Shown here: piece by piece, positions 982 to 56,054 of the stretch
How positions within the stretch are numbered: the stretch's first letter is position 1
Layout of the letters: each line of letters opens with the position of its first letter
From: an uncultured Lachnospiraceae bacterium
Lineage (GTDB): Bacteria; Bacillota; Clostridia; Christensenellales; UBA1242
Length of the DNA: 64,000 nucleotides
Reading direction: 5' to 3'
NCBI GenBank assembly: GCA_964646345.1
Contig: CAZYDU010000004.1
Location: 1,256 to 65,255, forward strand
The notes under the pieces: generated by a model
Database searches by the model: none
Told to the model about the DNA's origin: nothing
The model's input: only the letters and a program-made list of their open reading frames with translations
Position numbers and translations under genes: made by a program

Positions 982-1126
982 AAATACCTCACTTATATAA
1001 ATTTTGTGTATCATTAATAATGTTTTTTGTAAAGAAATTTAATATTATTATTGTATTTAATCGTATAAAAATTTTATTTAAAAAGGGTAAATCCTAATTA
1101 GATTAACCTTTAATATTTCACTAGTT

Positions 1127-1153
1127 TCAAAAGAGATAACCCTTTAGGGTTAT
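1127..1153 (-). terminator. Putative rho-independent terminator overlapping the stop codon of the 696-aa gene
   Basis: On the minus strand: 7-bp stem ATAACCC/GGGTTAT (1136-1142 / 1147-1153), 4-nt loop, then CUCUUUUG. Confidence 0.4.
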
Positions 1154-3240
1154 TTTGTAATTACTTCATCTTCGGAAACTTTTTGCCCGTGGCTTCCTAA
1201 ATGATTTTTCTTAAAAATTAAAATTAAAATTAACAAACCGATGTTTATCGCAATCAAAATGCAACCCAAAATTTGCAAAGTAGACCAAGCATCTGCCTTG
1301 ATATAATCAGTTTCGATAAAGCCCGTAAATTCATTACCGTACTCGTCATTGAATGTGATTGATGTAAATCCTGTTTTTGTGTTACGTTTGCCGTTAATTC
1401 GCACGGTTTTGCCCGAATTTAAGGTAAATGGTAGGGTAGTTGCATCTGAACTATCCGATAAATAAACTTTTGTGCCATCATTTTTGATGATTGCATTGGT
1501 TATAACAAAATCAACAGTATCCACAGGATTTCGAACACATCTAGCTTCGATGTATCCAACTTGATTATCATTGATTTTAACCTTTAACATTTTAACATTA
1601 TTTGCTGTATATCCACCAAGCACATCAAGAATTTCAACAAGAGAATTTTCTTCAATTTGCATAATAGTTTCAGTTACAAGATTACTTTTGCCAATTTTGC
1701 CTTTACAGAAAGTTGTAGGCAGTGAATACAGAGAAGAATTTGCCCAAATGGAAGCTTTTGCTCTTTCAATACCATTTTCGTCTTTGATAACTTTATAACC
1801 GGCTTCACGAACTGAAATTTGTGGCAATAAATCTAAGTAGTCATTTTTGATATAGCCAAAATTGTTACCATTAGAATTAGTGTACATACAGTAATCATAA
1901 TCAGAGATTTGAGTACCATTTAATAAATGAGCTGTTCCAATTTTAACAACATTTGTATCAATTCCTATGGCGATATCCGAGCTTGCGCCCCATGGATTTT
2001 CAAAAAGTTCGGTAACTCTATTGGCTTTTTTATAAACAAACTCATCAACTGATAAGTAGTTAATTTCACACTCAGGATTTTGAATAGGTAAAGCCTTATT
2101 AACACCATTAGAACTTGTGAAAGTGATGTAATTTAACGATTGATTATCTTTGTCAGGATAGGCGAAATAATTTCCATTGATTATTCCAAAATTTGAGTTT
2201 ATGCATTCCACTTCCAAAACAAACGAACGTTTTTCGTCAGCAGTACCACCATCTAAATTGAAAGAATAAAGTCTTAAACATTCGTTGTTATCATCTAAAT
2301 CTTTAAATGTAATTGCAAGATAGTCTTTTCCATTAAAAGATGTTATCATTGCTTCGGTAATATTTTCCCTTTGAGACGATCTAGATGATGATTCTTCGGT
2401 TGTGTTTGAAGGAATTTCAAAAGCATTTTCAGGAATTGTCTGATTGTCCTGAGCTAAAATCGTTAAGGATTTTAAATAGTTAACAGGGTAATAAATAATT
2501 TTTGTTTTATAAACAAATAGCAAATAGACTTTATCATTTACATCAACACATGAAAGTGTTTTTATTAGATTTGTCGTGTTATCATTATTATCAAAATTTA
2601 TATCTATTGACCTTTTTGTAACAAGGGACAAACTATCGTTTAATAAAATAATCTTTGATTTTTCGCCGATTGTTGAACTAGAAAAAGTGAATAACAAATA
2701 ATCTTTTGCTGGTTGTTCATCACTTAAATCGTTAAGTAATGAAATATTTGTTACGTTAAAAATATCGTATTTGGGGTCTAATGAAATTTGTGCGTCAAAT
2801 TCAGTTATTTTAAAAGTACTAGATTCAAGATTAATTTTGATAACAGTGTTAATAGTCTTTGTTGATGATGTTTCAGTGATTTCTTTCTGAATTAGCAGAT
2901 ATAATTCATTTTCATTTAAGCAAGCATCTTTTATATCGTATGCTGATAAATCCATGTAATTGCTATCAAAAACTTTGCCATCTATATCATAAACTTTGAG
3001 CAAATTGTCGCCATTATCTATAAAATAAATTTTATTATTATAGATAAAAGAGTAGGCGGGTTCACGAATAAATATTGAAACATTTGTTGATGCATATAGG
3101 TCTATATTTGTCGCCTGTGTTTCTTGTGAAACGATTGGTTTGAAAATTTTGAATGTGGAAAAAAGCCCCGAAATAGAACCAATCAAAACACAAATAAGCG
3201 AAAAAAATGCTGTAATATTTTTCTTTAGAGAATTTTTCAT
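1150..3240 (-). CDS. Surface protein: N-terminal signal anchor, large beta-rich ectodomain, three SH3b-like domains, C-terminal TM helix and short cytoplasmic tail (696 aa)
   Basis: N-terminal hydrophobic segment FFSLICVLIGSISGLF. C-terminal TM ILGCILIAINIGLLILILIF followed by KKNH. SH3b-type strand endings GYIKNDYL, VGYIEARCV and TGFIETDYI occur in the last 230 aa. Confidence 0.75.
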   Translation of the reverse strand: MKNSLKKNITAFFSLICVLIGSISGLFSTFKIFKPIVSQETQATNIDLYASTNVSIFIREPAYSFIYNNKIYFIDNGDNLLKVYDIDGKVFDSNYMDLSAYDIKDACLNENELYLLIQKEITETSSTKTINTVIKINLESSTFKITEFDAQISLDPKYDIFNVTNISLLNDLSDEQPAKDYLLFTFSSSTIGEKSKIILLNDSLSLVTKRSIDINFDNNDNTTNLIKTLSCVDVNDKVYLLFVYKTKIIYYPVNYLKSLTILAQDNQTIPENAFEIPSNTTEESSSRSSQRENITEAMITSFNGKDYLAITFKDLDDNNECLRLYSFNLDGGTADEKRSFVLEVECINSNFGIINGNYFAYPDKDNQSLNYITFTSSNGVNKALPIQNPECEINYLSVDEFVYKKANRVTELFENPWGASSDIAIGIDTNVVKIGTAHLLNGTQISDYDYCMYTNSNGNNFGYIKNDYLDLLPQISVREAGYKVIKDENGIERAKASIWANSSLYSLPTTFCKGKIGKSNLVTETIMQIEENSLVEILDVLGGYTANNVKMLKVKINDNQVGYIEARCVRNPVDTVDFVITNAIIKNDGTKVYLSDSSDATTLPFTLNSGKTVRINGKRNTKTGFTSITFNDEYGNEFTGFIETDYIKADAWSTLQILGCILIAINIGLLILILIFKKNHLGSHGQKVSEDEVITK

Positions 3241-3347
3241 AATTTTATTATATTATTATTTTGTGAAATTTACAAATAAAAAATAGGAATATTGAAATTT
3301 TGCTTTCTTTATTCCTATTTTTATGTTTGATGTAGTGTAAGTTTCAA

Positions 3348-3565
3348 GCTAGGGGATTTCTCGACTATGCTCGAAATGACAATGGGGAGAAAGTCGAAAT
3401 GACAATGGGAAAAGAATAATTTATTCTTTAGGTGTCATCTCGACCAAACGCAGTGCGTGGAGAGATCTCTTTGAGAATATATCCACTTTCTAGCTAGGGG
3501 ATTTCTCCATGCGTTCGCTTCGCTCACTTAGTCGAAATGACAATGGGGAGAAAGTCGAAATAACA
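3348..3565 (+). repeat. Composite cluster of three units of the GC-rich repeat family (forward unit, reverse subtype-2 unit, forward unit)
   Basis: Unit 3348-3404 is GCTAGGGGATTTCTC..CTCGAAATGACA..GTCGAAATGACA. Unit 3430-3472 is 43/43 nt identical to 60867-60909. Unit 3493-3565 is GCTAGGGGATTTCTCC..GTCGAAATGACA..GTCGAAATAACA. The cluster is visibly GC-richer than its surroundings. Confidence 0.85.
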
Positions 3566-36601: not shown

Positions 36602-37492
36602 CTAAAGCAATTCATCGTCATTAAAATCAATAAAGTGAGCACTAGGATTTTTATTTTTAACCAACTTCAAATTTTTATATTTTTCAATGGTTGGATTATT
36701 ATTTAAATTTTCATCATTAACAGAATTTAATTGTTGATTTTTGATATATTTTGTATTTTTCTTAAACTTTTGCACAAATTTATACAAAATAATAGCAAAA
36801 AATAAAATAATAGGAATTGCAATAATTGCGATAATAATCGTCTTGATTGTCGAAGAAATAAAAATTAATTTATCATCTAATTTATTTTCATTGGCAATAA
36901 CTTCCGGATTGGTTTCAGTGTTCGCAACAATTTCTGTTAAGTTTGTTGTATTTTCACTATAAACATAACCTTCATACACGTTTGTTGAATTTGAATCAGG
37001 GGTATAGTAAACATAATACCAAATATTACTTTCTCCACCTGAAGGCACAGAACCATAAGTATAAGCAATATAACTTATGTTTTTTGCTCCAGCACTAATA
37101 GTTGTGCATATATTTGATTTTGTTGTTGGATATTGCCATATTTGTGTTCCTGATGTTGATTTTATATCAAATGTAATGTTATCCAAAGTCTTCAAAACTG
37201 GAATAAATGTTGCAATCATCACAGTTTCTGAATCAACATAACCAATATATTTATCATACTGAACCTTAAAACAATCGTCATTTACAGTATCCAAAATTAC
37301 CATAAAATAAGTTTCAGGGATTTGAAAATAAACGTCTTCAAATCTGTCAGACATTTCTTGAGTTTTATATAAATTGCAACCAACCAATGCTTTTGCATAA
37401 GTAGACGTCTCAGACCCTTGAGCACAAGCATTTTTTGAATCAACACCATAAAAAATAATACAAATCGATAATAAAAATTTTATTAAATTCAT
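36602..37492 (-). CDS. Secreted/membrane protein: signal peptide, two SH3b-like domains, C-terminal TM helix, cytoplasmic tail (296 aa)
   Basis: Signal peptide MNLIKFLLSICIIFYGVDSKNACA. SH3b-type endings KYIGYVDSETV and YEGYVYSENT. TM helix IIIAIIAIPIILFFAIILY followed by KFVQKFKK. Confidence 0.75.
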   Translation of the reverse strand: MNLIKFLLSICIIFYGVDSKNACAQGSETSTYAKALVGCNLYKTQEMSDRFEDVYFQIPETYFMVILDTVNDDCFKVQYDKYIGYVDSETVMIATFIPVLKTLDNITFDIKSTSGTQIWQYPTTKSNICTTISAGAKNISYIAYTYGSVPSGGESNIWYYVYYTPDSNSTNVYEGYVYSENTTNLTEIVANTETNPEVIANENKLDDKLIFISSTIKTIIIAIIAIPIILFFAIILYKFVQKFKKNTKYIKNQQLNSVNDENLNNNPTIEKYKNLKLVKNKNPSAHFIDFNDDELL

Positions 37493-37578
37493 AATAAATT
37501 AATTATATTTCAAATATTTTTAAATAAAAATGCGTTTTTTGTCTAAATATATACAATTATAAAATATTAAAAATTTTT

Positions 37579-39000
37579 ATGAAAAAACAAAATATAATCA
37601 AACTCAATTCTATTTATAAAGAAATAAAACGTAGAAATATTTTACCACTAAAAAATTATAATTCCGGCAAAATTATCCATAAAAAACAATTAGAATTTCA
37701 CAAATCTTTAAAAAGAAATCGTTGGGTTTTTGGTGGAAACAGAACTGGCAAAACAGAATGTGGAGCAATAGAAACAATTTGGCTTACACTTGGAATACAC
37801 CCCTTTAGACCAAATAAACAAACAAGCGAATGTTGGGTTGTAAGCTTATCTCAAAGAGTGCAAAAAGAAGTCGCCCAATCAAAAATATTAAAATACTTAC
37901 CAAAAAATTCAATAAAAGAAATCATCATGACATCCGGTAAAAAATCAGATGCCGAAAATGGAATTATTGAGTGTATTATAACTAATAACATTTTTGGTAA
38001 CACAAGCAAAATTTGGTTTAAATCTTGCGAAGAAGGCAGGGAAAAATTTCAAGGAGCAAGTCTTGATTTTGTTTGGTTTGACGAAGAACCACCTGAAGAC
38101 ATATACAACGAATGCAAAATGAGAGTACTTGATAAGTCAGGCGAAATTTTTGGAACAATGACACCACTAAAAGGCTTAACTTTTATCTATAATCAAATAT
38201 ATCTAAACGAATCTCAAGACCCTGAAGTATTTTATTTATTTATGAGTTGGGAAGATAATCCCTTTTTAAATAAAAAAGAAATAGAAAGACTTACCCTTAC
38301 AATGTCCGAAGATGAAATCGAAAGCAGGAAATATGGTAGATTTTCTGCAAAAGACCTTGGTTTAATTTACACAGAATTTGACACAAACATTCATGTAATC
38401 GAACCATTTGAAATTGACAAAGATTGGCAAGACACTTTATCAATCGACCCAGGCTTAAATAACCCACTTTCTTGCCATTGGTATGCACGAGACTATGACG
38501 GAAATGTTTATGTTATAGCAGAACATTTTGCTGAAAACAAAACTATTGAATATCATGCTCAAAAAATAAAAGAAATATCCAAAAAACTAAATTGGAAAAG
38601 AGCAAGCAATGGCATGATTGAATCATTGATTGATAGTGCTTCAAATCAAAGAACATTGGCTTCGCAAAAAAGCGTAACAGATTTATTTTACGATAATGAA
38701 ATACTTGTAAACCCAAATGTAAACAAAGATGTTTTATCAGGAATTTCAAAAGTAAAAACATATCTTAAAAATATTGAAGGTAAAACACGGATTTATATTT
38801 TTTCTTGCTGTGTAAATTTAATTCAAGAATTAAAAACATATCGTTGGAACGGTCAAGGTATGCCCGTAAAAAAAGACGACCATTGCTTAGATGAACTTAG
38901 ATACTACATCATGAGTTTACATGAAAATCAAAAAATTGAACACAAAACAGAAATCCAAAAACACAAGGAAAGGTTATTTAAACAATTAATGAGAAAGTAA
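37579..39000 (+). CDS. terL: Phage terminase large subunit
   Basis: Walker A FGGNRTGKTE, Walker B LDFVWFDEEP, a C-terminal nuclease-like half containing DDHCLDELRY, and a size of 473 aa. It sits upstream of the portal gene. Confidence 0.85.
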   Translation: MKKQNIIKLNSIYKEIKRRNILPLKNYNSGKIIHKKQLEFHKSLKRNRWVFGGNRTGKTECGAIETIWLTLGIHPFRPNKQTSECWVVSLSQRVQKEVAQSKILKYLPKNSIKEIIMTSGKKSDAENGIIECIITNNIFGNTSKIWFKSCEEGREKFQGASLDFVWFDEEPPEDIYNECKMRVLDKSGEIFGTMTPLKGLTFIYNQIYLNESQDPEVFYLFMSWEDNPFLNKKEIERLTLTMSEDEIESRKYGRFSAKDLGLIYTEFDTNIHVIEPFEIDKDWQDTLSIDPGLNNPLSCHWYARDYDGNVYVIAEHFAENKTIEYHAQKIKEISKKLNWKRASNGMIESLIDSASNQRTLASQKSVTDLFYDNEILVNPNVNKDVLSGISKVKTYLKNIEGKTRIYIFSCCVNLIQELKTYRWNGQGMPVKKDDHCLDELRYYIMSLHENQKIEHKTEIQKHKERLFKQLMRK

Positions 39001-39416
39001 TGAACGATAAAAAAATATATGATGAATTAATTTCAATTCTTCTTAAAAAAGCTAACGGGTTTTATTATACTGAAGAACAAGAAGAATACGAAAAAACGCA
39101 AAACAAATCCAAATTTTCCGAAATATGCAATAACAATATTTCTTTTTTTGACAAAAGTGACACACTTGAAACCAATAATATAACACATAGTGATACAATT
39201 AAATCAGATAATGAAAATAAAAAAGAAAACCAATCTCTTGTTTTGGTTAAGAGAAAAATTACCACGCACTATATTCCGCCTGATATGCTCGCTGTTAAAA
39301 TTTTGTTTGAAACTATTAAGGAAAAGGTGAATGAAGATGACTTAAATAAATTATCAGATGAAGATTTAATAAAATTAAAAGACAAATTACTTGGAGAATT
39401 AAACAATGAAAATTAA
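39000..39416 (+). CDS. Hypothetical phage protein resembling the C-terminal half of small-terminase proteins, without an N-terminal HTH
   Basis: KANGFYYTEEQEEYE...KRKITTHYIPPDMLAVKILFE resembles the TerS segment aLGyeYeEv...KttKyvPpDvtAqifwLkN as I recall it. The start overlaps the terL stop (TAATG). Confidence 0.4.
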   Translation: MNDKKIYDELISILLKKANGFYYTEEQEEYEKTQNKSKFSEICNNNISFFDKSDTLETNNITHSDTIKSDNENKKENQSLVLVKRKITTHYIPPDMLAVKILFETIKEKVNEDDLNKLSDEDLIKLKDKLLGELNNEN

Positions 39417-39582
39417 TAAGATTAATAAATACTTAAAGTGTGATTCGATTTTATGCTTTAATAATGCTAGTTTTGAGATTTTAGCAGACAGCTATAAAGG
39501 CAATCAATATTTATGCAATGATTGTTTCAAAAAATATCAAAAATTATTCAAGGATACAAAGAAGGAAAATGAAGACAAATAA
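39406..39582 (+). CDS. Candidate 58-aa zinc-ribbon protein (below the ORF-track size cutoff)
   Basis: Translation: MKINKINKYLKCDSILCFNNASFEILADSYKGNQYLCNDCFKKYQKLFKDTKKENEDK, with the pattern C-x4-C...C-x2-C. It overlaps the upstream stop by 11 nt and the portal start by 14 nt. Confidence 0.35.
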   Translation: MKINKINKYLKCDSILCFNNASFEILADSYKGNQYLCNDCFKKYQKLFKDTKKENEDK

Positions 39583-41416
39583 TGAAAAATATTTCTATAG
39601 TAAAGATGAAGATAAAGTCATTGTAGATTTTGTTACAAACGACTTCAAAGAAAAACAATTAGCTAGACGAAATTTTGAATTAATATGGGAACTAAATATG
39701 AATTTCTATATTGGAAATCAGTATAGCTACATAACACCATCTGGTTTTATCTCAGATATAGAAAAAAATTACACTTGGGAAAATAGAGAAGTTTACAACC
39801 ACATCGCACCAATAATTGAAAGCAGATTATCAAAACTAAACAAAATTAAACCAAGCTTAGAAATCAAACCATGCAACAATACCGACACAGACAATTATAA
39901 AGCAAAACTTGCAAAAGCTATTCTCTTATCAAATTTTACTGAAAATAATTTAGAAAACTTAATTAATACCGCAACCGCATGGAGTGAAATTACTGGTACA
40001 AGTTTTTATAAAATTTCTTGGGATAATATTGAAAATAATGAAAGTAATAGTTCTCAATCTGGAGATGCTAAAATTTCAGTATGCACGCCTTTCGAAATTT
40101 ATCCTGACTCAAACTTTATTGAAGATATTGAAGAATGTAATTCAGTTATAGAAACAAGAGCTTTTCCCGCAAGTCAAATTAATCAAGAATGGGGAGTTAA
40201 TCTTGCTGGCGAAGATATAAATTTATTTAATCTCAATAATTCTGCATCAATTTCAAATCTCTCAGGTCGAAGCAATTTCACAAAGGTAACACACGATACA
40301 AATCATGATTATTTATTGTTAATTGAACGCTATGAAAAACCTACAACTAAACACCCAAATGGAAAGCTTACAATAATTTGCAAAGATAAGCTTCTTTATG
40401 ATGGAGACATGCCATACGTTAATGGCAACAAAAATACAAGAACATATCCATTTATAAAACAAGTTTCTTCTAAACAACTTTCTTGTTTTTGGGGAACAAG
40501 TATTATCGAAAGATGCATTCCAATTCAAAAAAGTTACAATGCTTTAAAAAATAGAAAACATGAATTTTTAACAAGACTCACAACTGGAGTGTTAACAGTT
40601 GAAGATGGCTCAGTCGATATAGATAATTTAGAAAACAACGGAATTGAACCTGGAAAAATTATTATTTATCGAAATGGTTCAACTCCACCAAAATTTCTTG
40701 ACCCCGGAAAAGTTCCTGAAGATTTCGAAAAAGAAGAAATCCGACTTTTATCTGAATTAAACAGTTTAGCAAGTGTTAGTGAAGTTACAACAAATGCAAG
40801 TGTACCAACAGGAGTTAACAGTGCAACAGCACTTTCGCTTTTAATGGAACAAGATGAAACAAGACTATCAACCATCGCCGAAGAAATTAGAACATCAATC
40901 AAAAAAATCAGTTATCAAGTTTTAAGACTTTACAAACAATTCTCAAACAATATTAGACTCAATAAAATAACTGACGGAAATGGTGCACTAGAAATTTTCT
41001 ACTGGACAAAAAACGACATAAGTTCTGACGATATTATTATTGACACAACAAACACATTAGATGAAACCAATACTAGCAAAAAAGAAATTATATTATCATT
41101 ACTTGACAAGGGATTATTTTCAAACCAAGACGGAAATATTACAAACCAAACAAAAGAAAAAATACTTTCATATCTCGGATTTGAAAACTGGTGTTCATTT
41201 GATGAACTAGGGGAATTACACAAAAAACGTGCCGAAAAAGAAAATATAAAATTAATCAAACTCGAAGACCCGCTAGATGTTGACGATGACAAAATTCACA
41301 TTGAACAACACACAAAATATTTAATTAGCGATAATAAATCAAATGATTCAAAATTTATCACTTCACTAGTTAAACATATTCAAAAACACAAAGAAAGATT
41401 AAACAAGGATAGGTAA
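39569..41416 (+). CDS. Phage portal protein (615 aa from the internal start)
   Basis: Called from its position after the terminase and before scaffold/capsid, and from its size. The ATG at 39569 is preceded by AAGAAGGAAA, whereas the track start at 39518 has no SD. Confidence 0.7.
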   Translation: MKTNNEKYFYSKDEDKVIVDFVTNDFKEKQLARRNFELIWELNMNFYIGNQYSYITPSGFISDIEKNYTWENREVYNHIAPIIESRLSKLNKIKPSLEIKPCNNTDTDNYKAKLAKAILLSNFTENNLENLINTATAWSEITGTSFYKISWDNIENNESNSSQSGDAKISVCTPFEIYPDSNFIEDIEECNSVIETRAFPASQINQEWGVNLAGEDINLFNLNNSASISNLSGRSNFTKVTHDTNHDYLLLIERYEKPTTKHPNGKLTIICKDKLLYDGDMPYVNGNKNTRTYPFIKQVSSKQLSCFWGTSIIERCIPIQKSYNALKNRKHEFLTRLTTGVLTVEDGSVDIDNLENNGIEPGKIIIYRNGSTPPKFLDPGKVPEDFEKEEIRLLSELNSLASVSEVTTNASVPTGVNSATALSLLMEQDETRLSTIAEEIRTSIKKISYQVLRLYKQFSNNIRLNKITDGNGALEIFYWTKNDISSDDIIIDTTNTLDETNTSKKEIILSLLDKGLFSNQDGNITNQTKEKILSYLGFENWCSFDELGELHKKRAEKENIKLIKLEDPLDVDDDKIHIEQHTKYLISDNKSNDSKFITSLVKHIQKHKERLNKDR

Positions 41417-41421
41417 TAAAA

Positions 41422-42000
41422 ATGGAAAATGAAATTATAGAACAACTAGAAGCTGAACCTGAAAACAATTCAGTAAACAGTGAAAGCTCTATGTATGGGA
41501 AGTTTAAAGATGCACAAACTTTACTGGAAGCATACAATTCTTTACAAGCAGAATTTACTAGAAAAAGTCAAAAATTGGCAGAATTTCAGAAAAAAGAAGA
41601 AGAAAATGCGATTTTTTCTAACAATGATTCACTTGAAAACATCTTAAATGATACAGTTGATAAAGAAAAATATAAAAAGGAAGTCACGGAGATTTTAGAA
41701 AATAACAATGATTTATCTAATCTGCCAAATAAAAATCAAATTGCATTTAAGATTATTAAAGAAGCCGAACGTAAAACTGCTGAAAACTTAAACAACCAAG
41801 ATTATGTTGATAAATATATTGAATCAAACGAAAAAATCAAAGAAAAAATCATATCAAATTATTTATCATCATTAAATAATGTTTCAACTGCACCCAAAGT
41901 TATTTCGGGCAATTCGTCAAATATTTATTTTTCACCTAGTTTAGAATTACCAAAAACTTTAAAAGATGCGGGAGAAATTTTAACAAAAATGCTTAAATAG
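41422..42000 (+). CDS. Head scaffolding protein
   Basis: 192 aa, acidic and helical/coiled-coil. It has the motif GKFKDAQTLLEAYNSLQAEFTRKSQKLAE, which is typical of phage scaffold N-termini, and it sits between portal and capsid. Confidence 0.6.
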   Translation: MENEIIEQLEAEPENNSVNSESSMYGKFKDAQTLLEAYNSLQAEFTRKSQKLAEFQKKEEENAIFSNNDSLENILNDTVDKEKYKKEVTEILENNNDLSNLPNKNQIAFKIIKEAERKTAENLNNQDYVDKYIESNEKIKEKIISNYLSSLNNVSTAPKVISGNSSNIYFSPSLELPKTLKDAGEILTKMLK

Positions 42001-42008
42001 GAGAATAA

Positions 42009-43190
42009 ATGGTTACATTAACTACAGCAAATAACGCACTAAAAGAAGTATATCTTGGAGTACTATCAAACCAACTAAACACTTCAATCAATCCATTATT
42101 AACAAGAATTAACCAAACAACATCCGATGTTTGGGGTAAACAAATTAGAAAAGTTGCACCTTATGGAATTAATGGTGGAATTGGTGCTGGCACTGAAGAT
42201 GGAGACCTTCCACATTCAGCACAAAACAATTACGAACAATTTGTACTTGATTTAAAGAATCTTTATGGCAAACTTGAAATTTCAGATAAAGCCATAAGAG
42301 CATCAGAAAATTCAGCCGGAGCATTCGTTAACTTGCTCACAGCAGAAATGGAAGGTCTAATCAAAGCAAGTTCCTTTAATTTCGGAAGAATGCTTTATGG
42401 TGACGGAAGCGGAACATTAGCAAATATCACAGAAAACGGAACAAACAACGTCACAGTTGATTCAACAAAAAATTTAATTGAAGGCTTGGTTGTAGATATC
42501 GTTTCAACAGGCGGTTCAGTTGCAAAGAGTGGATTAAGAATCACATCAATCGACCAAACCAATAAAATCGTAACTTTATCCGGTGCAAATTTTACAGCTA
42601 GCGATTATAAAACAGGATACATTCTTTGTGTGCAAGGTTCTTACGGCCTTGAAATAACAGGCTTAGGTGCAATCTTTAATTCAACATCAGATATTTACGG
42701 GCTAAGCAGAGACTCACATAAATGGTTAGTTCCATACATGAAAGATATTACAGGTACATCAACAAAAACAAATATAACAGATATTATAATTCAAAATGCA
42801 ATCGATGATTTGGAAGAATCAGCCGATAGTAAAGTTGATTTCATTGTTTGTTCATCGGGAGTTAAAAGAAATTATCAAAGCTACCTAGCTTCCTACAGGT
42901 CAAATGTTAATGTATTAGAACTTGAAGGTGGTTTTAAGGCAATTTCATATAACGGTATACCTTTAATTTCTGATAAATTTGCACCATCAAATACAATGTA
43001 TTTGTTAAATACAAATGAATTTAACTTACATCAATTATGCGACTGGAAATGGCTTGAAGGTGAAGATGGCAGGGTTATTCGTCAAACACTTGGCAAACCA
43101 ACTTATCAAGCAACACTTGTTAAATATGCAGATATTATTTGCAATAAACCACGTGGTCAAGCAATGATTACAGGTATTGCAGAATCATAA
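42009..43190 (+). CDS. Phage major capsid protein
   Basis: 393 aa, immediately after the scaffold gene with SD TAGGAGAA. Gly/Ala/Thr-rich, unlike its neighbours. Followed by a strong hairpin. The fold class was not determined. Confidence 0.7.
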   Translation: MVTLTTANNALKEVYLGVLSNQLNTSINPLLTRINQTTSDVWGKQIRKVAPYGINGGIGAGTEDGDLPHSAQNNYEQFVLDLKNLYGKLEISDKAIRASENSAGAFVNLLTAEMEGLIKASSFNFGRMLYGDGSGTLANITENGTNNVTVDSTKNLIEGLVVDIVSTGGSVAKSGLRITSIDQTNKIVTLSGANFTASDYKTGYILCVQGSYGLEITGLGAIFNSTSDIYGLSRDSHKWLVPYMKDITGTSTKTNITDIIIQNAIDDLEESADSKVDFIVCSSGVKRNYQSYLASYRSNVNVLELEGGFKAISYNGIPLISDKFAPSNTMYLLNTNEFNLHQLCDWKWLEGEDGRVIRQTLGKPTYQATLVKYADIICNKPRGQAMITGIAES

Positions 43191-43193
43191 CAT

Positions 43194-43220
43194 AAATCCA
43201 CACTAATTTAGTGTGGATTT
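43194..43220 (+). terminator. Perfect 10-bp hairpin directly after the capsid gene (partial terminator or RNA stabiliser)
   Basis: AAATCCACAC (43194-43203), loop TAATTTA, GTGTGGATTT (43211-43220), followed by only a weak U tract (ATTC). Confidence 0.5.
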
Positions 43221-43237
43221 ATTCAAAAGGAAAGAAT

Positions 43238-43630
43238 ATGATATTTAATAATCTATACTTTAAAAAATGTAAAGATATGTTTAATCTATATAATGTAATT
43301 CAAAAAATTAATCCAGGATTTAGGTTATATTTTAATACAAAAAATAAAAAATATGTCATCGTCAATATTTACAAAAATAACGAAATTTGTAAGACTTTTG
43401 ATACATTTTTAGAAAATATTGAAAACAATTTGCGTTTTTCTAATATTACAAATTACAATTACATTATTAAATACATTGAAGATTTTAATCAAAAAATCAA
43501 TTCAAAAAATAAAATAAATTCAATCAGCAAATCTAATTTTTTAGCTAAAGAATTATTAAAATTTTCTAATCATTCCAAAACAATAAATAATAGTGATATA
43601 AATAAAATAATCGGAGCAACGCAATGTTAA
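43238..43630 (+). CDS. Hypothetical protein (130 aa from the internal start)
   Basis: SD AAAGGAAAG lies before the ATG at 43238. The track start at 43211 lies inside the hairpin arm. N/K/I-rich; no family recognised. Confidence 0.5.
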   Translation: MIFNNLYFKKCKDMFNLYNVIQKINPGFRLYFNTKNKKYVIVNIYKNNEICKTFDTFLENIENNLRFSNITNYNYIIKYIEDFNQKINSKNKINSISKSNFLAKELLKFSNHSKTINNSDINKIIGATQC

Positions 43631-44181
43631 AAGATATTTTATTACAAACATCAGAACTTATAAACAGAGATGATTTGATTGATGCATTAAATGATAGCAA
43701 TCAAACACAATCAACTCAAAATGATATACTAAGACTTATAAGTTATTACAATTACACAATAGAAACTTTGTGTGAAAATTATTTCAATATACAAAACACA
43801 CAATCAATCATTTCAGACAAAAACCGTAAAATCCATTATCTAAATTTCAATTTTGAACCAAATAAAATTTTAACAGTAACAAAAAATCATAAACCAATTT
43901 TCTTTTCAGATTATTCAAAATATATTTTAGTTCCTGAAGCAAACACATGCTATGAGATTACTTATAAATATACACCAAATAAGATAACAAACTTGACAGA
44001 TAACACACATCTACCTAAAGGTGTTTCACAAAAACTTGTTTGTTATGGAATTGCAAGTCAGTTTATGGCATGCAAAAATCAAATATCACAAGCAGAATAT
44101 TGGAACAATAAATTCATGTTAGAAATATTCAAATCAAAAACAACAAAAGATAGAAAACTAAAACAAACCATACGTATATGA
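43624..44181 (+). CDS. Hypothetical protein; by position a possible head completion/adaptor protein (185 aa)
   Basis: Overlaps the upstream stop (ATGTTAA) and the downstream start (ATGA). The function is assigned from position only. Confidence 0.45.
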   Translation: MLKDILLQTSELINRDDLIDALNDSNQTQSTQNDILRLISYYNYTIETLCENYFNIQNTQSIISDKNRKIHYLNFNFEPNKILTVTKNHKPIFFSDYSKYILVPEANTCYEITYKYTPNKITNLTDNTHLPKGVSQKLVCYGIASQFMACKNQISQAEYWNNKFMLEIFKSKTTKDRKLKQTIRI

Positions 44182-45512
44182 AAACACTAGTCAAATATAT
44201 TTCTAATTTTAAATTTAACAATAATGCAAGTGATGATAATTTACAAATAGAATATTTTGAAAATATTAATTTAGATAATGGCGAAATTACTTCCGAACTA
44301 AAGCAAGGCGATTTATTTTATGATTTATTTGGAGAAGTTATTTCAAATCAAATCAAAAATATTAATAACGAATTATTAAATAAAACAATAGAAATAATTC
44401 CGTATGAATATTTTGACGAGATAATAAACAATAAAATATTAAGATTATTTATTCTAACAAATAATTATGAATTATATGAATTAGATAATGAATCATATCT
44501 TTTCAAAGTTATACATCAATTCACAAATAAGCCAAACATTATTTTCAATAAAAGCAATTTATATTATTTTGACAAAAACGAGTGTATGATTGTTGATTTA
44601 AGCAATTTAGTTCTAATTGAAAACTTACCACAAATCAATTCATACGTAGAATATAACAACCAATTATTTTTTACTACAGACGCACCTTTCAATATCTTCC
44701 AGTGTGAAGAAATTGAGTTTAAAAATTTATCAAACAATTTAAACATTTATAATAACTACAAAACCAATTTAGAAAATGGCGAAATATTAAAGGTAATCCT
44801 ATTAAAAAATAAATTATATGCTATAACTGAATACACCATTTTAAAGTATGATTCTGATTACGACAAATTTATTAAGCAAAATGATTTAAAACTTTGCATC
44901 TACAAAAACACCATTGAAATAATAGATAATAAGGTTTTATTTTACACAACAAATGGACTATATTCTTTTGATGGAAACAATATTGAACTAACATCAAATA
45001 GTCTGTTAGATATTAATAAAAACGCAAAATCAGTTTGTTTTAATCAAAATTATTACATATTTTCGCCAAATCATGTGAATTTTTTGTATAAATTTAATCT
45101 CCAAAATAATTATTTAATTCCTTTAAAATTAAATAATATTAAAAATTTTTATGTAATAAGTTCAAATAGTATTTACAACCTTTGCATTTGTCAACTCATA
45201 GAAAATACTTATAAAAATATAACTCTATATAATTTAAATTCAAATTCATTTATCAAACAACAATTAGCATTTAAATCTTCTTTTTTTGGTTCAGCTAAAA
45301 CAAAACAAATCAAGAATATTATTTTAAAATCTGAAGGCGAATTTTTATTTACTATCAAATCAGATATTAGCGAAACTTGTTTCTACGTTTCCAGTCCAAC
45401 AAGTTTTAGAAATTTATCTTTAAATGGAAATATTTTTACTATAGAAATTTCAACTCAAAATTATTTTAAACTTAAATCAATTTTGATTGAGTATAGTGAA
45501 GTGGGGGAATAA
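44178..45512 (+). CDS. Hypothetical structural-module protein (444 aa), beta-rich, N/I/K/Y-rich
   Basis: Translationally coupled on both sides. No motif recognised. Confidence 0.55.
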   Translation: MKTLVKYISNFKFNNNASDDNLQIEYFENINLDNGEITSELKQGDLFYDLFGEVISNQIKNINNELLNKTIEIIPYEYFDEIINNKILRLFILTNNYELYELDNESYLFKVIHQFTNKPNIIFNKSNLYYFDKNECMIVDLSNLVLIENLPQINSYVEYNNQLFFTTDAPFNIFQCEEIEFKNLSNNLNIYNNYKTNLENGEILKVILLKNKLYAITEYTILKYDSDYDKFIKQNDLKLCIYKNTIEIIDNKVLFYTTNGLYSFDGNNIELTSNSLLDINKNAKSVCFNQNYYIFSPNHVNFLYKFNLQNNYLIPLKLNNIKNFYVISSNSIYNLCICQLIENTYKNITLYNLNSNSFIKQQLAFKSSFFGSAKTKQIKNIILKSEGEFLFTIKSDISETCFYVSSPTSFRNLSLNGNIFTIEISTQNYFKLKSILIEYSEVGE

Positions 45513-46528
45513 TGTCAATCTCAAAATCTATTGTAAAACTTGAAAATAAGGTTGAACAATTAGAAGAAAATCTTAATAAATTGCAATCTAAAACCAAAGA
45601 TATGATAAGCGATATTGGGTTCACAGTTTATACAAAAAATCTTTTAAATTTAAATATTATTAATAATTACAAATTTCGATTAAGAACGCTTGATAATACA
45701 AATAAAAATTCTCAATTTTTTCAAGTTAAAATTCGATTTTTAAATTATTCAGAACAAGATGTCACTTTTAATTTATTTGCCGATAACTTACAAATTGTAA
45801 GCGATACCCAAACCTACAATAAGGGTATAAATGAAGCTGTTATCTATGGGACATATTCTAATTTAATTAGCGATAAAATAATAATTGAACTTCAAGTTAA
45901 ACCACGTGCAAATAAACAACTAACAATACTAAACACAACAATGACTATTTGGGGAAGCTTTCAAAAAAATGACTCAGAATATTCCGCTTCAGAAACCGAT
46001 TCAAAATATTTCATTTCTTATATATCAAACAATAGACTTTATTATAAATATTTTAACAAAAGTCAAAATGCTAATAACCTTGATTTTACATTTTATGAAG
46101 AAGCTATTTCACATTCAACTTGCACCTTAAATGGAAACATCTACTTATTTAGAGTTAACTTAGATGGGAATTTATTTTTTAGCAATATAAACTCATTCGA
46201 TGAAAATTTTATATGCAATGATGTGAGCAATGTTTCATGTTGTGCAAATGCAGACACAATAATTTTTTGCTACATTAAACAAAACAAATGCTATTATGGA
46301 GAAATCAAAAACAATGTCGTTATTTCTAACAATACACTAACAACACCTTTTGGTTTGTATAAGGCTTGCTATATATATTTTAATTTTAGCAATAGTAAAT
46401 TTTATATAGTTGCAACAAATAGCAAAAATAACAATTATTTACTTGAAAGCATTTCAGAAACAAATAGCTCAAGCGAAAACATCTCAGCAAATGCAACTTT
46501 AACCATCGATGAAATAGGAGACACTTAA
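45512..46528 (+). CDS. Hypothetical structural-module protein (338 aa) with an N-terminal coiled coil
   Basis: The N-terminus KLENKVEQLEENLNKLQSKTKDM has a heptad pattern and is followed by a beta-rich region. It has a TAATG junction with the upstream gene. Confidence 0.55.
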   Translation: MSISKSIVKLENKVEQLEENLNKLQSKTKDMISDIGFTVYTKNLLNLNIINNYKFRLRTLDNTNKNSQFFQVKIRFLNYSEQDVTFNLFADNLQIVSDTQTYNKGINEAVIYGTYSNLISDKIIIELQVKPRANKQLTILNTTMTIWGSFQKNDSEYSASETDSKYFISYISNNRLYYKYFNKSQNANNLDFTFYEEAISHSTCTLNGNIYLFRVNLDGNLFFSNINSFDENFICNDVSNVSCCANADTIIFCYIKQNKCYYGEIKNNVVISNNTLTTPFGLYKACYIYFNFSNSKFYIVATNSKNNNYLLESISETNSSSENISANATLTIDEIGDT

Positions 46529-46529
46529 A

Positions 46530-48521
46530 ATGAAATTTTCATTTCACAATAAAATCAACATCAAAGTCAGCAATAGAGAGTATGTATTTTATAACTCAAT
46601 TCTTGAGAATCTTTTGGAAAAATTATCTAGTTTCGATAGCTTTAATAATTACTTAGCACTTGGAAACGGAGAAGAAAACCCAAACGCCCAAAATCAATAT
46701 CACTTAACAAACTTTATCGCAAGAACAAAATATTCTTCAAAACAAATTCAGAGCAACATTAGCAAAGGTACACTATTTACAACATTAGAATATAAATTAA
46801 ATAAAAGTCAGCTTAACTGCAACCACTTAACTGAAGCAGGTTTATGTGATAATAGCGACAACCCTAAAATTTATAACTATTTTTCTTTTATATCAAGTGA
46901 TACACCAAACGGTATTAATATAACAAATAGCGAAGAAATTGCAATAGCTGTAACAATTTATCTAACAATATCAGAGAATGACGATATTTTGCTTACATCA
47001 GGCAACAACAAATTCATCGAATATTTACTAGGAAACGGACTGGGTGAAGTTAGGGTATGCAGTGGTTCAAATTATGCAGATAACACAAGAATCTCAAGAA
47101 AAATCACAAACACTCAAGAAACATATACATGTGAAAAAAGTGCAACAATAACAAATAATTCTCTTGCCATTTCGTTTGTTGCTGAACTAAAAATTGGTGA
47201 AATCAATGAAATTGTATTCTTAATAGATAATGAAGTTTTTGCAAGGAAAAATGTAAAAGAATTTAAGCCAGTTATTAGTAGTGAAACAATACTAGAACCA
47301 AAAGCGAACTATGTTGTTAAAATTGATGAAGATATAAAATCCATTTTAGAAGTAAGCAAAACATCAGATAATATGGTAGAGACAAACTATTTCGTTTCCA
47401 AATTCGCAAACTCGTTTGGCGATGAAGTTTACCTTCCATTCAATAATTTATTCGATTCTACTACCAGTAGATTTATTTCAAAAGATGGTAAATTAATATT
47501 TTTCATACTAAACAATAAAGTTTATTGTTATAAAAATGAAAATTATATCTTAACAGAAATCAACACGAGAGAAATAACCGAAGATAATATTACAAAAATA
47601 ATCGCATTCGATAATTTCATTTTTATAATTTCGTCAATTAGTCCATACATTTCAACATATATTATTGAAAATGACAGAATAAAAAATGTAAACAACGACT
47701 TTAGTTCATTCGAAAAAAATTCAGAATTACAAACTATTCAACAAATTGACATTTCAAGAGCAATAAATGGAAATTTTTTGATTGGCATGCTAACAAACGC
47801 AAGCACTGCACTAACAATTTATGCAACATGTAATGAAGAAACCGGATTTTCTGTTAACAGTTATTTAGAAAACAGCAAGAAATTTAATTATGTTCTTGCT
47901 ATGCATAAAAATAATTTTTGTGACGCACAAATGATTTATCTTAGAGAAGGCGAGTCATCAGCATCTTGCAGAATTGTTACACATTCTTCGTCTGCAACAG
48001 AAACCGATGTATATTCAATTCTTGCATACGAGCTAACAAATAATTCAACCAAAATTTATACAAAAGACAGAGCAATTATTTCCGAGAAAAACACATCTCC
48101 AAATATTGTGATTTACTACTATCCACAAGTATATAAATATGAGTTACCAATAATATCAAATGAACTTAAAGATTATGTATCAAATAATTTAAACTATATT
48201 ATTCAAAAAAACGAAAATAATCAGTACTCCGTTTATAATTTGATAGGCTATGATTCTCCAGAAGAATTTACCAATAATATTTCTTCATTGGTTAACACAT
48301 CAAAGATTGTTGATTTTGAATTTTTACAAGACACTTTACTAATCTTCTTAAATAATGACAAACAAAATATTGTCGCATATAATCTAAATTTAAATAAAAC
48401 TCAAATTGAAAATGTCTCAGAAAAAGAAGCATCATATCTAATTAAATATAACAAGTATAATAAGCTCGGTTGGAACAACGAAACTGTTAAATTTAAATTT
48501 ATTTCACAGGTGAATCTATGA
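46530..48521 (+). CDS. Hypothetical structural-module protein (663 aa), possible fibre or receptor-binding protein
   Basis: The N-terminal segment YLALGNGEENPNAQNQYHLTNFIARTKY resembles the conserved aiGdGnG...L.nE..R motif of phage tail-fibre N-terminal domains. This is a weak match. Confidence 0.5.
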   Translation: MKFSFHNKINIKVSNREYVFYNSILENLLEKLSSFDSFNNYLALGNGEENPNAQNQYHLTNFIARTKYSSKQIQSNISKGTLFTTLEYKLNKSQLNCNHLTEAGLCDNSDNPKIYNYFSFISSDTPNGINITNSEEIAIAVTIYLTISENDDILLTSGNNKFIEYLLGNGLGEVRVCSGSNYADNTRISRKITNTQETYTCEKSATITNNSLAISFVAELKIGEINEIVFLIDNEVFARKNVKEFKPVISSETILEPKANYVVKIDEDIKSILEVSKTSDNMVETNYFVSKFANSFGDEVYLPFNNLFDSTTSRFISKDGKLIFFILNNKVYCYKNENYILTEINTREITEDNITKIIAFDNFIFIISSISPYISTYIIENDRIKNVNNDFSSFEKNSELQTIQQIDISRAINGNFLIGMLTNASTALTIYATCNEETGFSVNSYLENSKKFNYVLAMHKNNFCDAQMIYLREGESSASCRIVTHSSSATETDVYSILAYELTNNSTKIYTKDRAIISEKNTSPNIVIYYYPQVYKYELPIISNELKDYVSNNLNYIIQKNENNQYSVYNLIGYDSPEEFTNNISSLVNTSKIVDFEFLQDTLLIFLNNDKQNIVAYNLNLNKTQIENVSEKEASYLIKYNKYNKLGWNNETVKFKFISQVNL

Positions 48522-48769
48522 TTTTTTCTGATAAAATTTATAAAATAATTGATGGCGAAAATGTATCATTATTTTCAACTGATAACAATAAATTAAACTT
48601 ATATATTTTAAATAAATCAATAAAAAAATATATAATTTCAACAAATTTAAATGCAAATTGCGTTTTTTGTGATAATTTTAATGGTCAAAAAATAATTGAA
48701 TTAAATGATAATTTTATAGCTATAGGCAGTAATGATTTTATTACAATTATAAACAAAAATGATTTATGA
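48518..48769 (+). CDS. Small hypothetical protein (83 aa)
   Basis: ATGA overlap with the upstream gene. No motif recognised. Confidence 0.45.
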   Translation: MIFSDKIYKIIDGENVSLFSTDNNKLNLYILNKSIKKYIISTNLNANCVFCDNFNGQKIIELNDNFIAIGSNDFITIINKNDL

Positions 48770-48835
48770 GAAAATTATATCAAATAAATCAAATCAAACT
48801 CATTTTTTCTTTAATAAATAAAATAAGGGGGACAA

Positions 48836-49531
48836 ATGAAATTAAAAGATAAGATTAAATCGTATAGTTTTTGGGTGAGCATAGCAAGTGCTGTAATTCT
48901 TATATTGAAAGTTCTTGGTAACCGCTTTGGCTTTACCGTAGACGAAAGCATGATTAGTGATATTTTCACGGCACTATGCAGTGTACTAGTTTTACTTGGA
49001 ATAATTGTTATACCACAATCTCCAAATCAAACCACTTCAACTAAACAGGATATAAATCAACAACTCGAAGAAACGATGAACGAAAATAACGATACAACAA
49101 ACACAAACAATAATGACGTTAGCAGTATAATCAATATAGAAGAACCAGTCTTAAAATGTAAGGAAGACAATGATACAATCATTGAAGATAACACTAAGTA
49201 TTCAACCAATGATAATACAGACTCAGAAATCAAAATAATTGATAACTTACAAGAAATCGTCATTGCCAAACAAAATGAAAATAGTGAAAACATTGAAAAT
49301 TTAACAACAGAAAGCATAGATAATTTTAATTTAACAGGCACAAATGATATAAATTTAATCCAAGAGTGCAATCAAGATAATTTTGAAGAACAGTTAAATA
49401 ACGAAAATAATTCAAACAATGATAATTTAAAATCAACTCTAAATTATTTAAGAGAAAACTTTTCTTCAGATATTGACAAGTATATTTTTGAATTAGAAGA
49501 AGAACTTAGAAAAATTAAAGAAAGTAGATAA
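48836..49531 (+). CDS. Holin-like protein (phi LC3/Phage_holin_1-type N-terminal domain) with a long acidic Asn-rich C-terminal extension
   Basis: SD AAGGGGGA. The N-terminus KDKIKSYSFWVSIASAVILILKVLGNRFGFTVDES..IFTALCSVLVLLGIIVIP matches the two-TM pattern K.K.K...FW.....l.li..v...FGf.......i......L.lLGii.dP of Gram-positive phage holins. It is followed by about 165 aa of D/E/N-rich sequence. Confidence 0.6.
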   Translation: MKLKDKIKSYSFWVSIASAVILILKVLGNRFGFTVDESMISDIFTALCSVLVLLGIIVIPQSPNQTTSTKQDINQQLEETMNENNDTTNTNNNDVSSIINIEEPVLKCKEDNDTIIEDNTKYSTNDNTDSEIKIIDNLQEIVIAKQNENSENIENLTTESIDNFNLTGTNDINLIQECNQDNFEEQLNNENNSNNDNLKSTLNYLRENFSSDIDKYIFELEEELRKIKESR

Positions 49532-49546
49532 AAACAAATAAAACGG

Positions 49547-49575
49547 GGAAGCATTAAATTGCTTCTCTTTTTTTA
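49547..49575 (+). terminator. Rho-independent terminator closing the phage-like operon
   Basis: Stem GGAAGCA/TGCTTCT (one G-U pair), loop TTAAAT, then T7. Confidence 0.7.
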
Positions 49576-55669: not shown

Positions 55670-55698
55670 TTGACAAAAACAATACAAAATAGTATAAT
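55670..55698 (+). promoter_or_regulatory. Consensus sigma-A promoter of rnpB
   Basis: TTGACA (55670-55675), 17 nt, TATAAT (55693-55698). The predicted start near 55705 coincides with the 5' end of the P1 helix. Confidence 0.75.
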
Positions 55699-55704
55699 AT
55701 TATT

Positions 55705-56022
55705 GTTAGTTGGACAGGCACGCAAAGCAATTTGTGAGGAAAGTCCGAGCATCATAGAGCAATCACGCTTGATAACGTCAAGCCGAGGCGACTCGAGGAA
55801 AAGTGCAACAGAAAGATACCGCCGAAAGGTAAGGGTGAAAAAGTGGGGTAAGAGCCCACTCAACTGGTTGGTGACAATCGGTTGCTGTAAACTCCGTGAG
55901 ATGCAAGGTGTGGAACATTTAGGACTGCTCGTCCGTTCCCGTGACCGCTTGAGTATGGTGGCAACATCATATCTAGATTGATGCCTGTCTTAAATGACAG
56001 AACTCGGCTTACAGACTAACTA
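55705..56022 (+). ncRNA. rnpB: RNase P RNA (bacterial; compact, presumably type B as in Bacillota)
   Basis: Universal P4 strands GAGGAAAGTCCGAGC (5') and ACAGAACTCGGCTTACAG (3'). The block GGTAAGGGTGAAAAAGTGGGGTAAGAGCCCAC is present. P1 pairs GTTAGT (55705-55710) with ACTAAC (56015-56020). Confidence 0.9.
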
Positions 56023-56054
56023 AAAGGGTGGTTTTACCACCTTTTTATTTTTTG
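56022..56054 (+). terminator. Rho-independent terminator of rnpB
   Basis: Stem AAAGGGTGG/CCACCTTTT (GGTGG 56027-56031 pairs with CCACC 56037-56041), loop TTTTA, then a T-rich tract. Confidence 0.7.

Follow-up and report, generated by a model that had tools for sequence, protein, structure and literature searches.

A podovirus-derived head and tail gene cassette of uncultured gut Clostridia as a candidate gene transfer agent

Background

What does an operon of phage-type packaging and capsid genes do in a bacterial chromosome when the functions with which a phage integrates, replicates and maintains lysogeny are missing? The question is raised by a 64,000-nt stretch of contig CAZYDU010000004.1 (assembly GCA_964646345.1; the whole stretch is termed the window below), which derives from an uncultured Lachnospiraceae bacterium placed by GTDB in the Christensenellales, and in which such an operon occupies positions 37579-49575 of the plus strand. 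A preliminary description made from the sequence had recognised packaging, head and holin-like genes, and had offered as explanations a domesticated particle resembling a gene transfer agent (GTA), a capsid-forming satellite that borrows tails, the remnant of a short-tailed phage with its tail genes among the orphan proteins, and a capsid co-opted for another purpose. To our knowledge, GTAs are well characterised almost exclusively in Alphaproteobacteria. The analysis presented here indicates that the operon is very probably a domesticated cassette maintained by selection. It would, furthermore, probably work as a GTA-type particle cassette, derived from a podovirus and chromosomally fixed in a large clade of Clostridia that are uncultured and for the most part associated with the gut.

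Packaging, head and tail genes of the operon

Twelve closely packed open reading frames (ORFs), most of which overlap or lie a few bases apart, make up the operon between 37579 and 49531 (+), and an intrinsic terminator closes it (Table 1). Profile matches agree with the preliminary assignments of the large terminase (TerL), portal, major capsid protein (MCP) and holin-like protein, and the overlapping junctions, the terminator and the housekeeping genes to the right were likewise borne out. The Walker A, Walker B, coupling and nuclease motifs of TerL are at least 95% conserved among 66 loci. The match of the MCP to the capsid_maj_Podo family was judged against a cut-off of 80 bits, and comparison of the capsid profile and the portal with PDB sequences yielded no matches. 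The 192-aa protein encoded between these two has no Pfam or PHROG domain match, and its proposed role as scaffold is retained on account of its size and its place between the portal and capsid genes, as in Microbacterium phage Shocker.

The gene following terL was initially described as a TerS-like fragment, an assignment that holds at the level of the family. While orthologues from other species match positions ~190-250 of the 319 in phrog_309, a terminase small subunit family (3e-6 to 5e-4), the window copy (39000-39416) has no profile match of its own, and no DNA-binding domain is recognisable in it. The short internal match of the orthologues fits a TerS remnant lacking the DNA-binding domain. 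The position of the gene differs among hosts, as it lies downstream of terL throughout the family of the window but upstream of it in Maliibacterium (L090 5236-5769), which is a gene-order change inside one module family.

No tail genes had been recognised in the preliminary description, a claim that is overturned by three of the orphan proteins. The 444-aa protein was modelled with AlphaFold (AF2) from an alignment of 12 sequences (pLDDT 85.6; pTM 0.72), which were all that the homologue search returned and were sufficient for a good model, the word-based index underestimating the size of the family. The top match of this model in a Foldseek search of the PDB was P22 gp10 (8eap_D; E 6e-13; TM 0.56/0.54), followed by the podophage tails of Pan3, VP1, GP4, PhiM1, T7 (the gp12 nozzle) and SU10, and the best named matches in BFVD were ‘P22 Gp10’ proteins (E ~1e-17; TM ~0.63). 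Alignment of the family to Shocker gp33 with hhalign gave no signal. On its predicted structure, the 444-aa protein is a podovirus tail hub or nozzle. Members of the 338-aa protein family of ~800 aa match phrog_5302 ‘tail protein’ at 4e-35, and the N-terminus of a relative of the 663-aa protein (L021) matches phrog_4176 ‘tail fiber protein’ at 7e-6. The hub fold and these family-level matches imply that the encoded particle would be short-tailed rather than tail-less. The 185-aa protein encoded directly before the hub shows weak matches to phrog_10775 ‘tail protein’ (2e-4) and, by hhalign, to the ‘tail tube protein’ gp32 of Shocker (E 0.026). A PHROG scan of 42 orthologues returned solely this weak match of the window copy, a 42-sequence profile found nothing among PDB sequences, and the single-sequence AF2 model was unusable (pLDDT 38).

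The P22-type portal, HK97-type podovirus capsid protein and gp10/gp12-type hub, together with the lack of a tail tube and tape measure, characterise the operon as a podovirus-type (P22/T7-like) virion module. Podoviruses of this type would not be expected to encode a prohead protease, a tail tube or a tape measure, so that their lack here is no anomaly. The 663-aa, 83-aa and holin-like genes, the last of which encodes two N-terminal transmembrane segments and a long acidic, Asn-rich tail, are confined to ~20 closer loci. In most other loci they are replaced by a gene for a DUF7934 protein (Pfam; ~310 aa with a central coiled coil), which is present in the cassette at 58 loci, absent from the clade of the window and fused to LysM in Maliibacterium. 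This protein could be a needle, a plug or a wall-binding tail protein. It was also considered as the missing endolysin, a candidate that was dropped when its profile retrieved only coiled-coil noise from the PDB, and no mention of it was found in the literature.

Domain scans of the operon and the rest of the window detected no integrase, repressor, primase, helicase, replication or protease domains, in agreement with the preliminary description, which had also recognised no endolysin. Direct repeats resembling att sites were not found in the window, where just low-identity, AT-rich chance matches occur, and no tRNA was found there. Similarly, none of the inspected loci contains an integrase, an AlpA-type regulator or a primase/replication module within ±10 kb. 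The domain scans and the att search thus describe a phage-derived structural and packaging cluster without replication, integration or lysogeny functions, as in a GTA.

Distribution and vertical inheritance of the cassette

Database homologues of the MCP number over 6000. The best 120 of these share 73-100% identity with it, and many of these top homologues are located on 100-900 kb contigs of metagenome-assembled genomes (MAGs) labelled ‘Clostridia bacterium’. Even in genomes where the MCP is just 75% identical, the whole locus is syntenic on contigs of 578 kb and 894 kb, including the giant gene, regulator and SH3b gene on one side, all twelve genes of the operon, and the membrane protein, rnj and methyltransferase genes on the other. 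A pattern scan of one genome per GTDB species flagged 331 species with a relative, and the best 80 of these 331 were fetched, all of them MAGs from human, chicken, rabbit and ruminant guts, with many labelled as Christensenellaceae. On the basis of tblastn and iterative hidden Markov model searches over the ORFs of the fetched genomes, by which the common cassette was defined, the cassette is syntenic in these 80 species-level genomes, with 12-14 genes in the same order. This order consists of a variable upstream gene (-), the sigma-like regulator, the SH3b membrane protein (-), terL, the TerS-like gene, the 58-aa gene, portal, scaffold, MCP, (139 aa), 185 aa, 444 aa, one to four tail-type genes and the polytopic membrane protein, after which rnj and the methyltransferase and U32 peptidase genes follow in most clades. 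The cultured Maliibacterium massiliense carries two related modules, one of which, at LR026983.1 978370-999548, is minimal; its 13 genes are flanked by housekeeping genes, and terL is preceded in it by a homologue of the regulator and by the TerS-like gene. Five of the cassette-bearing contigs of gut Clostridia MAGs (L029, L031, L032, L034 and L051) are titled ‘Corallococcus sp.’ or ‘Candidatus Fimimonas’; the assignment of Candidatus Fimimonas to the Myxococcaceae in the NCBI taxonomy appears to be an error.

In IMG/VR, 25 short ‘viral’ contigs with this capsid gene were found (L091-L115), without a complete free phage among them. Since the longer ones bear the same host-side flanks, these contigs are fragments of the chromosomal cassette.

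The ratio of non-synonymous to synonymous substitution (dN/dS), calculated by the NG86 method between the window and its close relative L087 (dS 0.10-0.39), lies between 0.02 and 0.29 for every gene of the cassette. The values are 0.022 for the portal, 0.027 for TerL, 0.041 for the MCP, 0.067 for the scaffold and 0.12-0.29 for the tail and lysis genes, with 0.014 and 0.081 for the neighbouring rnj and methyltransferase genes. Except for ORFs truncated where a contig ends, and for two others, the ORFs are intact and of full length across the loci. Among the 29 genomes with complete genes, hosts that differ more in RNase J also differ more in TerL, portal and MCP (Pearson correlation of p-distances 0.94, 0.88 and 0.86, respectively; Mantel p 0.001). 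In 92% of the genome pairs the MCP is better conserved than RNase J, and no pair of distant hosts shares a near-identical MCP. The conservation of the cassette in 80 or more species, with an MCP slower to evolve than RNase J, implies a cellular function under strong selection. The synteny in 80 genomes, the dN/dS values and the correlation with RNase J together amount to the vertical inheritance under purifying selection that is characteristic of GTAs.

Divergence is much faster in the tail genes. The hub of the window shares 52% identity with that of L085, compared to 91% for the MCP and 96% for RNase J, and the 663-aa protein evolves fast, with 42-66% amino acid identity between species (dN/dS 0.125 against the close relative). 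The tail-gene part of the operon (43000-47000 in the window) has a G+C content of 23%, against ~30% in the head genes and flanks and ~30% for the window overall. The faster divergence and low G+C content suggest either diversifying selection or allele replacement in this region.

Comparison with known gene transfer agents

In architecture, the closest precedent is the Faecalibacterium element FpGTA (operon I, CP030777 2536737-2546346, RCH50844-RCH50853; Nat Commun 2026, PMC12946183), which forms ~40-nm particles with 8.4-8.9 kb of random host DNA. It is the first podovirus-like GTA from the gut, and is reported in Faecalibacterium only (PMC12946183). Compared through the annotations of that paper (including Supplementary Data 2) rather than by sequence, both systems are chromosomal operons of ~10-12 kb in gut Clostridia with a podovirus-like layout and without integrase or replication genes, and both encode TerL, a TerS-like protein without DNA-binding domain, a portal, a capsid protein, an adaptor and a nozzle. 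The FpGTA nozzle is annotated to PDB 8eap (P22 gp10), the top Foldseek match of the 444-aa protein of the window, and the order terL, portal, MCP, adaptor, P22 gp10-like nozzle is common to both, the adaptor of the window being placed by position only.

The differences are considerable. The FpGTA capsid protein is named ‘N4-gp56 family’, whereas that of the window matches solely NF033394 capsid_maj_Podo (E <= 0.01), and a Prp-like protein is encoded between the portal and capsid genes of FpGTA, where the window has the 192-aa scaffold candidate without match. The fibre, holin and endolysin genes of FpGTA lie in a second locus 125 kb away, while fibre-like and holin-like genes are found inside the operon of the window, with no endolysin found. 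In addition, FpGTA is confined to Faecalibacterium, whereas the cassette spans at least 80 species (331 flagged). As neither the N4-gp56 capsid nor the Prp-like protein is matched in the window, membership of the FpGTA family is not supported. In a search for direct homology, no Faecalibacterium protein occurred among 30 capsid-family representatives that were looked up, the named matches being only uncultured Clostridia and Maliibacterium massiliense.

RcGTA of the Alphaproteobacteria is a domesticated head-tail cluster, inherited vertically over an order-level clade under purifying selection, with a TerS that lacks specific DNA recognition, host-linked regulation and lysis functions partly outside the main cluster. 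The cassette resembles it in being a domesticated head-tail cluster, in its vertical inheritance and purifying selection, in a TerS that would lack specific recognition, in a regulation that would be linked to the host and in lysis functions that would partly lie elsewhere. It differs in that RcGTA is siphovirus-like, with a tail tube and tape measure, belongs to a different phylum and is built from unrelated gene families. Among phages, the P22-like and SU10-like podoviruses share with it the portal (P22_portal/SU10_portal), the capsid family phrog_14242, relatives of which carry SU10_MCP, and the gp10-like hub, and Microbacterium phage Shocker shares the head gene order of terL, two small genes, portal, scaffold and MCP. 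These and the actinobacterial podoviruses, which are the nearest deposited phages (24-29% capsid identity), are, however, complete phages of 40-80 kb that encode functions for replication, lysis and ejection. A literature search found no description of the cassette.

Function of the cassette and alternative explanations

The intact and conserved packaging motor, the truncated TerS-like partner and the close precedent of FpGTA favour a GTA-type function, which would comprise headful packaging of host DNA at low specificity, release and possibly delivery, and both of the initial suggestions of a domesticated GTA-like particle and of a short-tailed phage derivative with tail genes among the orphans are supported jointly. 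Under such a function, the sigma-like regulator would activate a promoter located in the 86 bp that precede terL and contain the motif AATGCG-N5-TGTC, giving rise to a single transcript that would extend as far as the terminator at 49.55 kb. The portal, scaffold and capsid protein would assemble a procapsid that, like those of P22 and T7, needs no protease, and TerL and its truncated TerS-like partner would then fill the heads with host DNA at low specificity, by analogy to RcGTA and FpGTA. The presumed adaptor (185 aa), the gp10-like hub (444 aa) and the needle or fibre proteins (338 and 663 aa) would close the head and provide for attachment, and release may be brought about by the holin-like protein and a lysin encoded elsewhere. 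Both RcGTA and FpGTA have lysis genes elsewhere in the genome.

Several points weigh against this interpretation. Packaging of essentially random host DNA in preference to the own locus, a head capacity below the size of the encoding cluster (here 12 kb) and delivery to recipient cells, which also mark a GTA, are predictions in this lineage, as are the particles themselves. No endolysin domain was detected by the domain scans in the operon or the rest of the 64-kb window, and no ejection or internal-core proteins were recognised. The 185-aa protein is a putative adaptor by virtue of a position equivalent to that of the adaptors of podoviruses and FpGTA, and this assignment is weakly supported. 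As rnj adjoins the module, it is an imperfect independent proxy of the host phylogeny, and the correlation of distances is partly driven by a few deep clades. Furthermore, some members of the family may be ordinary prophages, because Maliibacterium has two related modules.

The gene set and its conservation would be the same if the operon encoded a defective phage of the PBSX type, that is a weapon or altruistic lysis device whose particles are made and may package host DNA without delivering it productively, the selected function being the killing or binding of competitor strains or the release of DNA and cell contents. PBSX of Bacillus subtilis, which packages 13-kb random host DNA (PMC12946183), is likewise a Gram-positive defective phage-like element under a sigma-like late regulator, and the same alternative is raised for FpGTA by its authors (PMC12946183). 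The sigma-like regulator of the cassette recalls Xpf, and the much faster divergence of the hub and fibre genes than of the head (52% for the hub against 91% for the MCP between the window and L085) is what strain-discriminating specificity predicts. Xpf is the late regulator of PBSX. However, PBSX is a myovirus-like killing particle of ~28 kb with a contractile tail, whereas the module of the window is short-tailed and less than half that size. The known killing particles (PBSX and the tailocins) have contractile or long tails, and we know of no killing mechanism for a short podovirus tail. The conservation of the TerL nuclease and ATPase motifs also argues that packaging itself is under selection, and a device of this kind is thus considered unlikely.

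A capsid co-opted for another role, such as a compartment for protein or nucleic acid, or a structure formed in development under the sigma-like factor and the two membrane proteins, appears improbable. In its favour, the regulator and the SH3b and polytopic membrane proteins, for which a GTA has no evident use, stay linked to the module from clade to clade. Purifying selection has, however, retained the holin-like protein along with the terminase, portal and tail hub, which together form the toolkit of a released, DNA-filled particle, and a co-opted role is unnecessary given that the terminase and portal are intact and conserved.

A decaying prophage and a classical satellite are excluded by the evidence. 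The phage origin of the operon, its lack of many phage functions, the classification of fragments as viral in IMG/VR and the low G+C content of the tail region (23% vs ~30%) could be attributed to an ordinary remnant, or to a prophage that reintegrates repeatedly at a site near rnj, but this is very improbable in the light of the 12-14-gene order in 80 species, the dN/dS of 0.02-0.29 for all genes, and an MCP more conserved than RNase J in a module that co-diverges with it. The integrase, att repeats, repressor, replication genes, patchy distribution and pseudogenes by which a temperate prophage would be known were not found. Occurrence in one strain, att duplications and pseudogenisation, which the preliminary description had named as signs of plain decay, all fail to appear, since 80 genomes are syntenic, att repeats are lacking, the ORFs are intact and dN/dS is low. 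Of the tail, lysin and integrase genes that it had regarded as telling against its proposal if present among the orphans, tail genes were found, while a lysin and an integrase were not. A capsid-forming satellite (cf-PICI-like), or another element that obtains replication, tails or lysis from a helper phage in the same cell, would agree with the small size (~12 kb), the own TerL, portal and capsid genes and the lack of a recognised replication or lysis enzyme, but is just as improbable, as the operon encodes its own tail hub where such satellites have a capsid without tail genes, lacks the integrase, AlpA-type regulator and primase/replication module within ±10 kb at the inspected loci, and is inherited vertically with the host, with which it co-diverges, always in a chromosomal housekeeping context.

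Regulator, membrane proteins and genomic surroundings

To the left of the operon lie a divergent gene for a 296-aa membrane protein, the 209-aa sigma-like protein and a 10,617-aa ORF. Sigma-70 region 4 is the sole recognisable part of the 209-aa regulator, as in phage late-gene activators, and a homologue occurs at the same position in 59 loci and in the Maliibacterium module L090. The motif AATGCG-N5-TGTC has a close variant upstream of the terL start in ten further species of the window’s clade, where it recurs inside otherwise divergent AT-rich spacers, and its single occurrence in the window compares with 0.09 expected by chance. These features suggest that the regulator may drive the operon from this site. 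The 296-aa protein, read from its sequence, would have a signal peptide, two SH3-like repeats and a C-terminal transmembrane segment, and its initial naming as an SH3b protein holds at the family level, SH3_3 being matched in six scanned sequences that are presumably its orthologues (best 4e-7). The polytopic membrane protein is still found 3’ of the module in a clade without downstream rnj (L037, L050, L054 and L058). The palindromic hairpin immediately 3’ of the capsid gene may be a transcript-stabilising or attenuating element.

The 10,617-aa giant gene is a single ORF at 3587-35440 (-), whose product has a signal of the lipoprotein type (…FLVAC…) at its N-terminus and transmembrane segments at its C-terminus; versions of 8.7-10.6k aa occupy the same position in close relatives, and the dN/dS of its N-terminal 400 aa is 0.41. 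Its positional counterparts in other clades are genes of 600-850 aa, to which phmmer found no similarity, and it is for this reason not counted in the cassette. Downstream of it, ORFs of 211 and 696 aa at 379-1014 (-) and 1150-3240 (-) have no Pfam/PHROG match. In L074, an 835-aa gene upstream of the cassette (1031-3538, -) was recruited when the 444-aa hub served as seed of the iterative search, which may reflect a beta-propeller domain common to both or else a spurious match. To the right of the operon follow genes for the membrane protein, rnj, methyltransferase, U32 peptidase, a sigma factor, RNase P RNA and mgsA, and further right a UvrD-like helicase, pnuC, GDPD and lepA. The RNase P RNA gene (55702-56027; 246 bits) is overlapped by a 103-aa ORF at 55670-55981 (+), which is almost certainly no gene.

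Table 1 Features of the cassette and its immediate flanks, with window positions except where a locus is named; the figures after profile names are E-values
Feature	Position	Strand	Evidence and conservation
Sigma-like regulator, 209 aa	35772-36401	+	Sigma70_r4 1e-3; TIGR02937 5e-6; phrog_36 ‘transcriptional regulator’ 2e-5; dN/dS 0.06
SH3b single-pass membrane protein, 296 aa, divergent from terL	36602-37492	-	Same position and orientation in 61 loci; dN/dS 0.08
Motif AATGCG-N5-TGTC, candidate promoter/operator	37529-37543	+	In 86-bp gap before terL
Large terminase TerL, 473 aa	37579-39000	+	Terminase_6N 9e-12; Terminase_6C 1e-5; phrog_2 1e-31
Truncated TerS-like protein, 138 aa	39000-39416	+	Family-level evidence; family in 73 loci; dN/dS 0.076
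Small conserved protein, 58 aa	39406-39582	+	Family in 68 loci; called as gene in public assemblies; dN/dS 0.06
Portal, P22/SU10 type, 615 aa from 39569 (longest ORF from 39518)	39569-41416	+	P22_portal 1e-10; SU10_portal 1e-4; phrog_156 1e-25
Putative scaffolding protein, 192 aa	41422-42000	+	Position and size; family in 81 loci; dN/dS 0.067
Major capsid protein (MCP), podovirus type, 393 aa	42009-43190	+	phrog_14242 1e-61; NCBIfam NF033394 capsid_maj_Podo 4e-83
Palindromic hairpin, 14-bp stem	43192-43222		Immediately 3’ of capsid gene
Small structural-module protein, 130 aa (longest ORF from GTG 43211)	43238-43630	+	Family in 58 loci and both Maliibacterium modules; dN/dS 0.29
Putative head-to-tail adaptor, 185 aa	43624-44181	+	Directly before hub gene in 78 loci
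Predicted tail hub/nozzle, 444 aa, P22 gp10 / T7 gp12 fold	44178-45512	+	Structure model and Foldseek; family in 75 loci
Putative tail needle or fibre protein, 338 aa	45512-46528	+	N-terminal coiled coil, then beta-rich region; family in 33 loci; dN/dS 0.14
Putative tail fibre or receptor-binding protein, 663 aa	46530-48521	+	Family in 20 closer loci only
Small protein, 83 aa	48518-48769	+	Co-occurs with 663-aa gene; dN/dS 0.20
Holin-like protein, 231 aa	48836-49531	+	Phage_holin_1 7.5e-5; phrog_297 holin 3.5e-10; dN/dS 0.29
Intrinsic terminator	49545-49575	+	9-bp stem with 4 GC pairs (stem-loop 49545-49568), then TTTTTTT; closes operon
Polytopic membrane protein, 341 aa	49680-50705	+	In 54 loci; no domain match; dN/dS 0.056
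DUF7934 protein, examples	L038 13405-14337; L037 14355-15329; L090 15104-16102

Implications

The cassette is distinctive in its phylogenetic breadth, in the extreme conservation of its MCP and in the regulator and membrane proteins linked to it. For Christensenellaceae MAGs, packaging of the GTA type with fragments of ~4-7 kb has been reported from human faecal virus-like particles, without the locus being named (PMC12946183), and the cassette is a candidate locus for this packaging. Tentatively, it may represent an ancient GTA that extends over several Christensenellales-like clades of gut Clostridia, has its own sigma-like switch and two membrane proteins and is the source of the 4-7 kb packaging in Christensenellaceae; its domestication, it is proposed with the same reserve, could have occurred independently of FpGTA or long before it. 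As virome pipelines list fragments of the cassette as viral, virome surveys may count it as phage. The host lineage comprises abundant, health-associated and largely uncultured gut bacteria and, if this tentative reading holds true, no GTA family known from Bacillota would be distributed as widely as the cassette.

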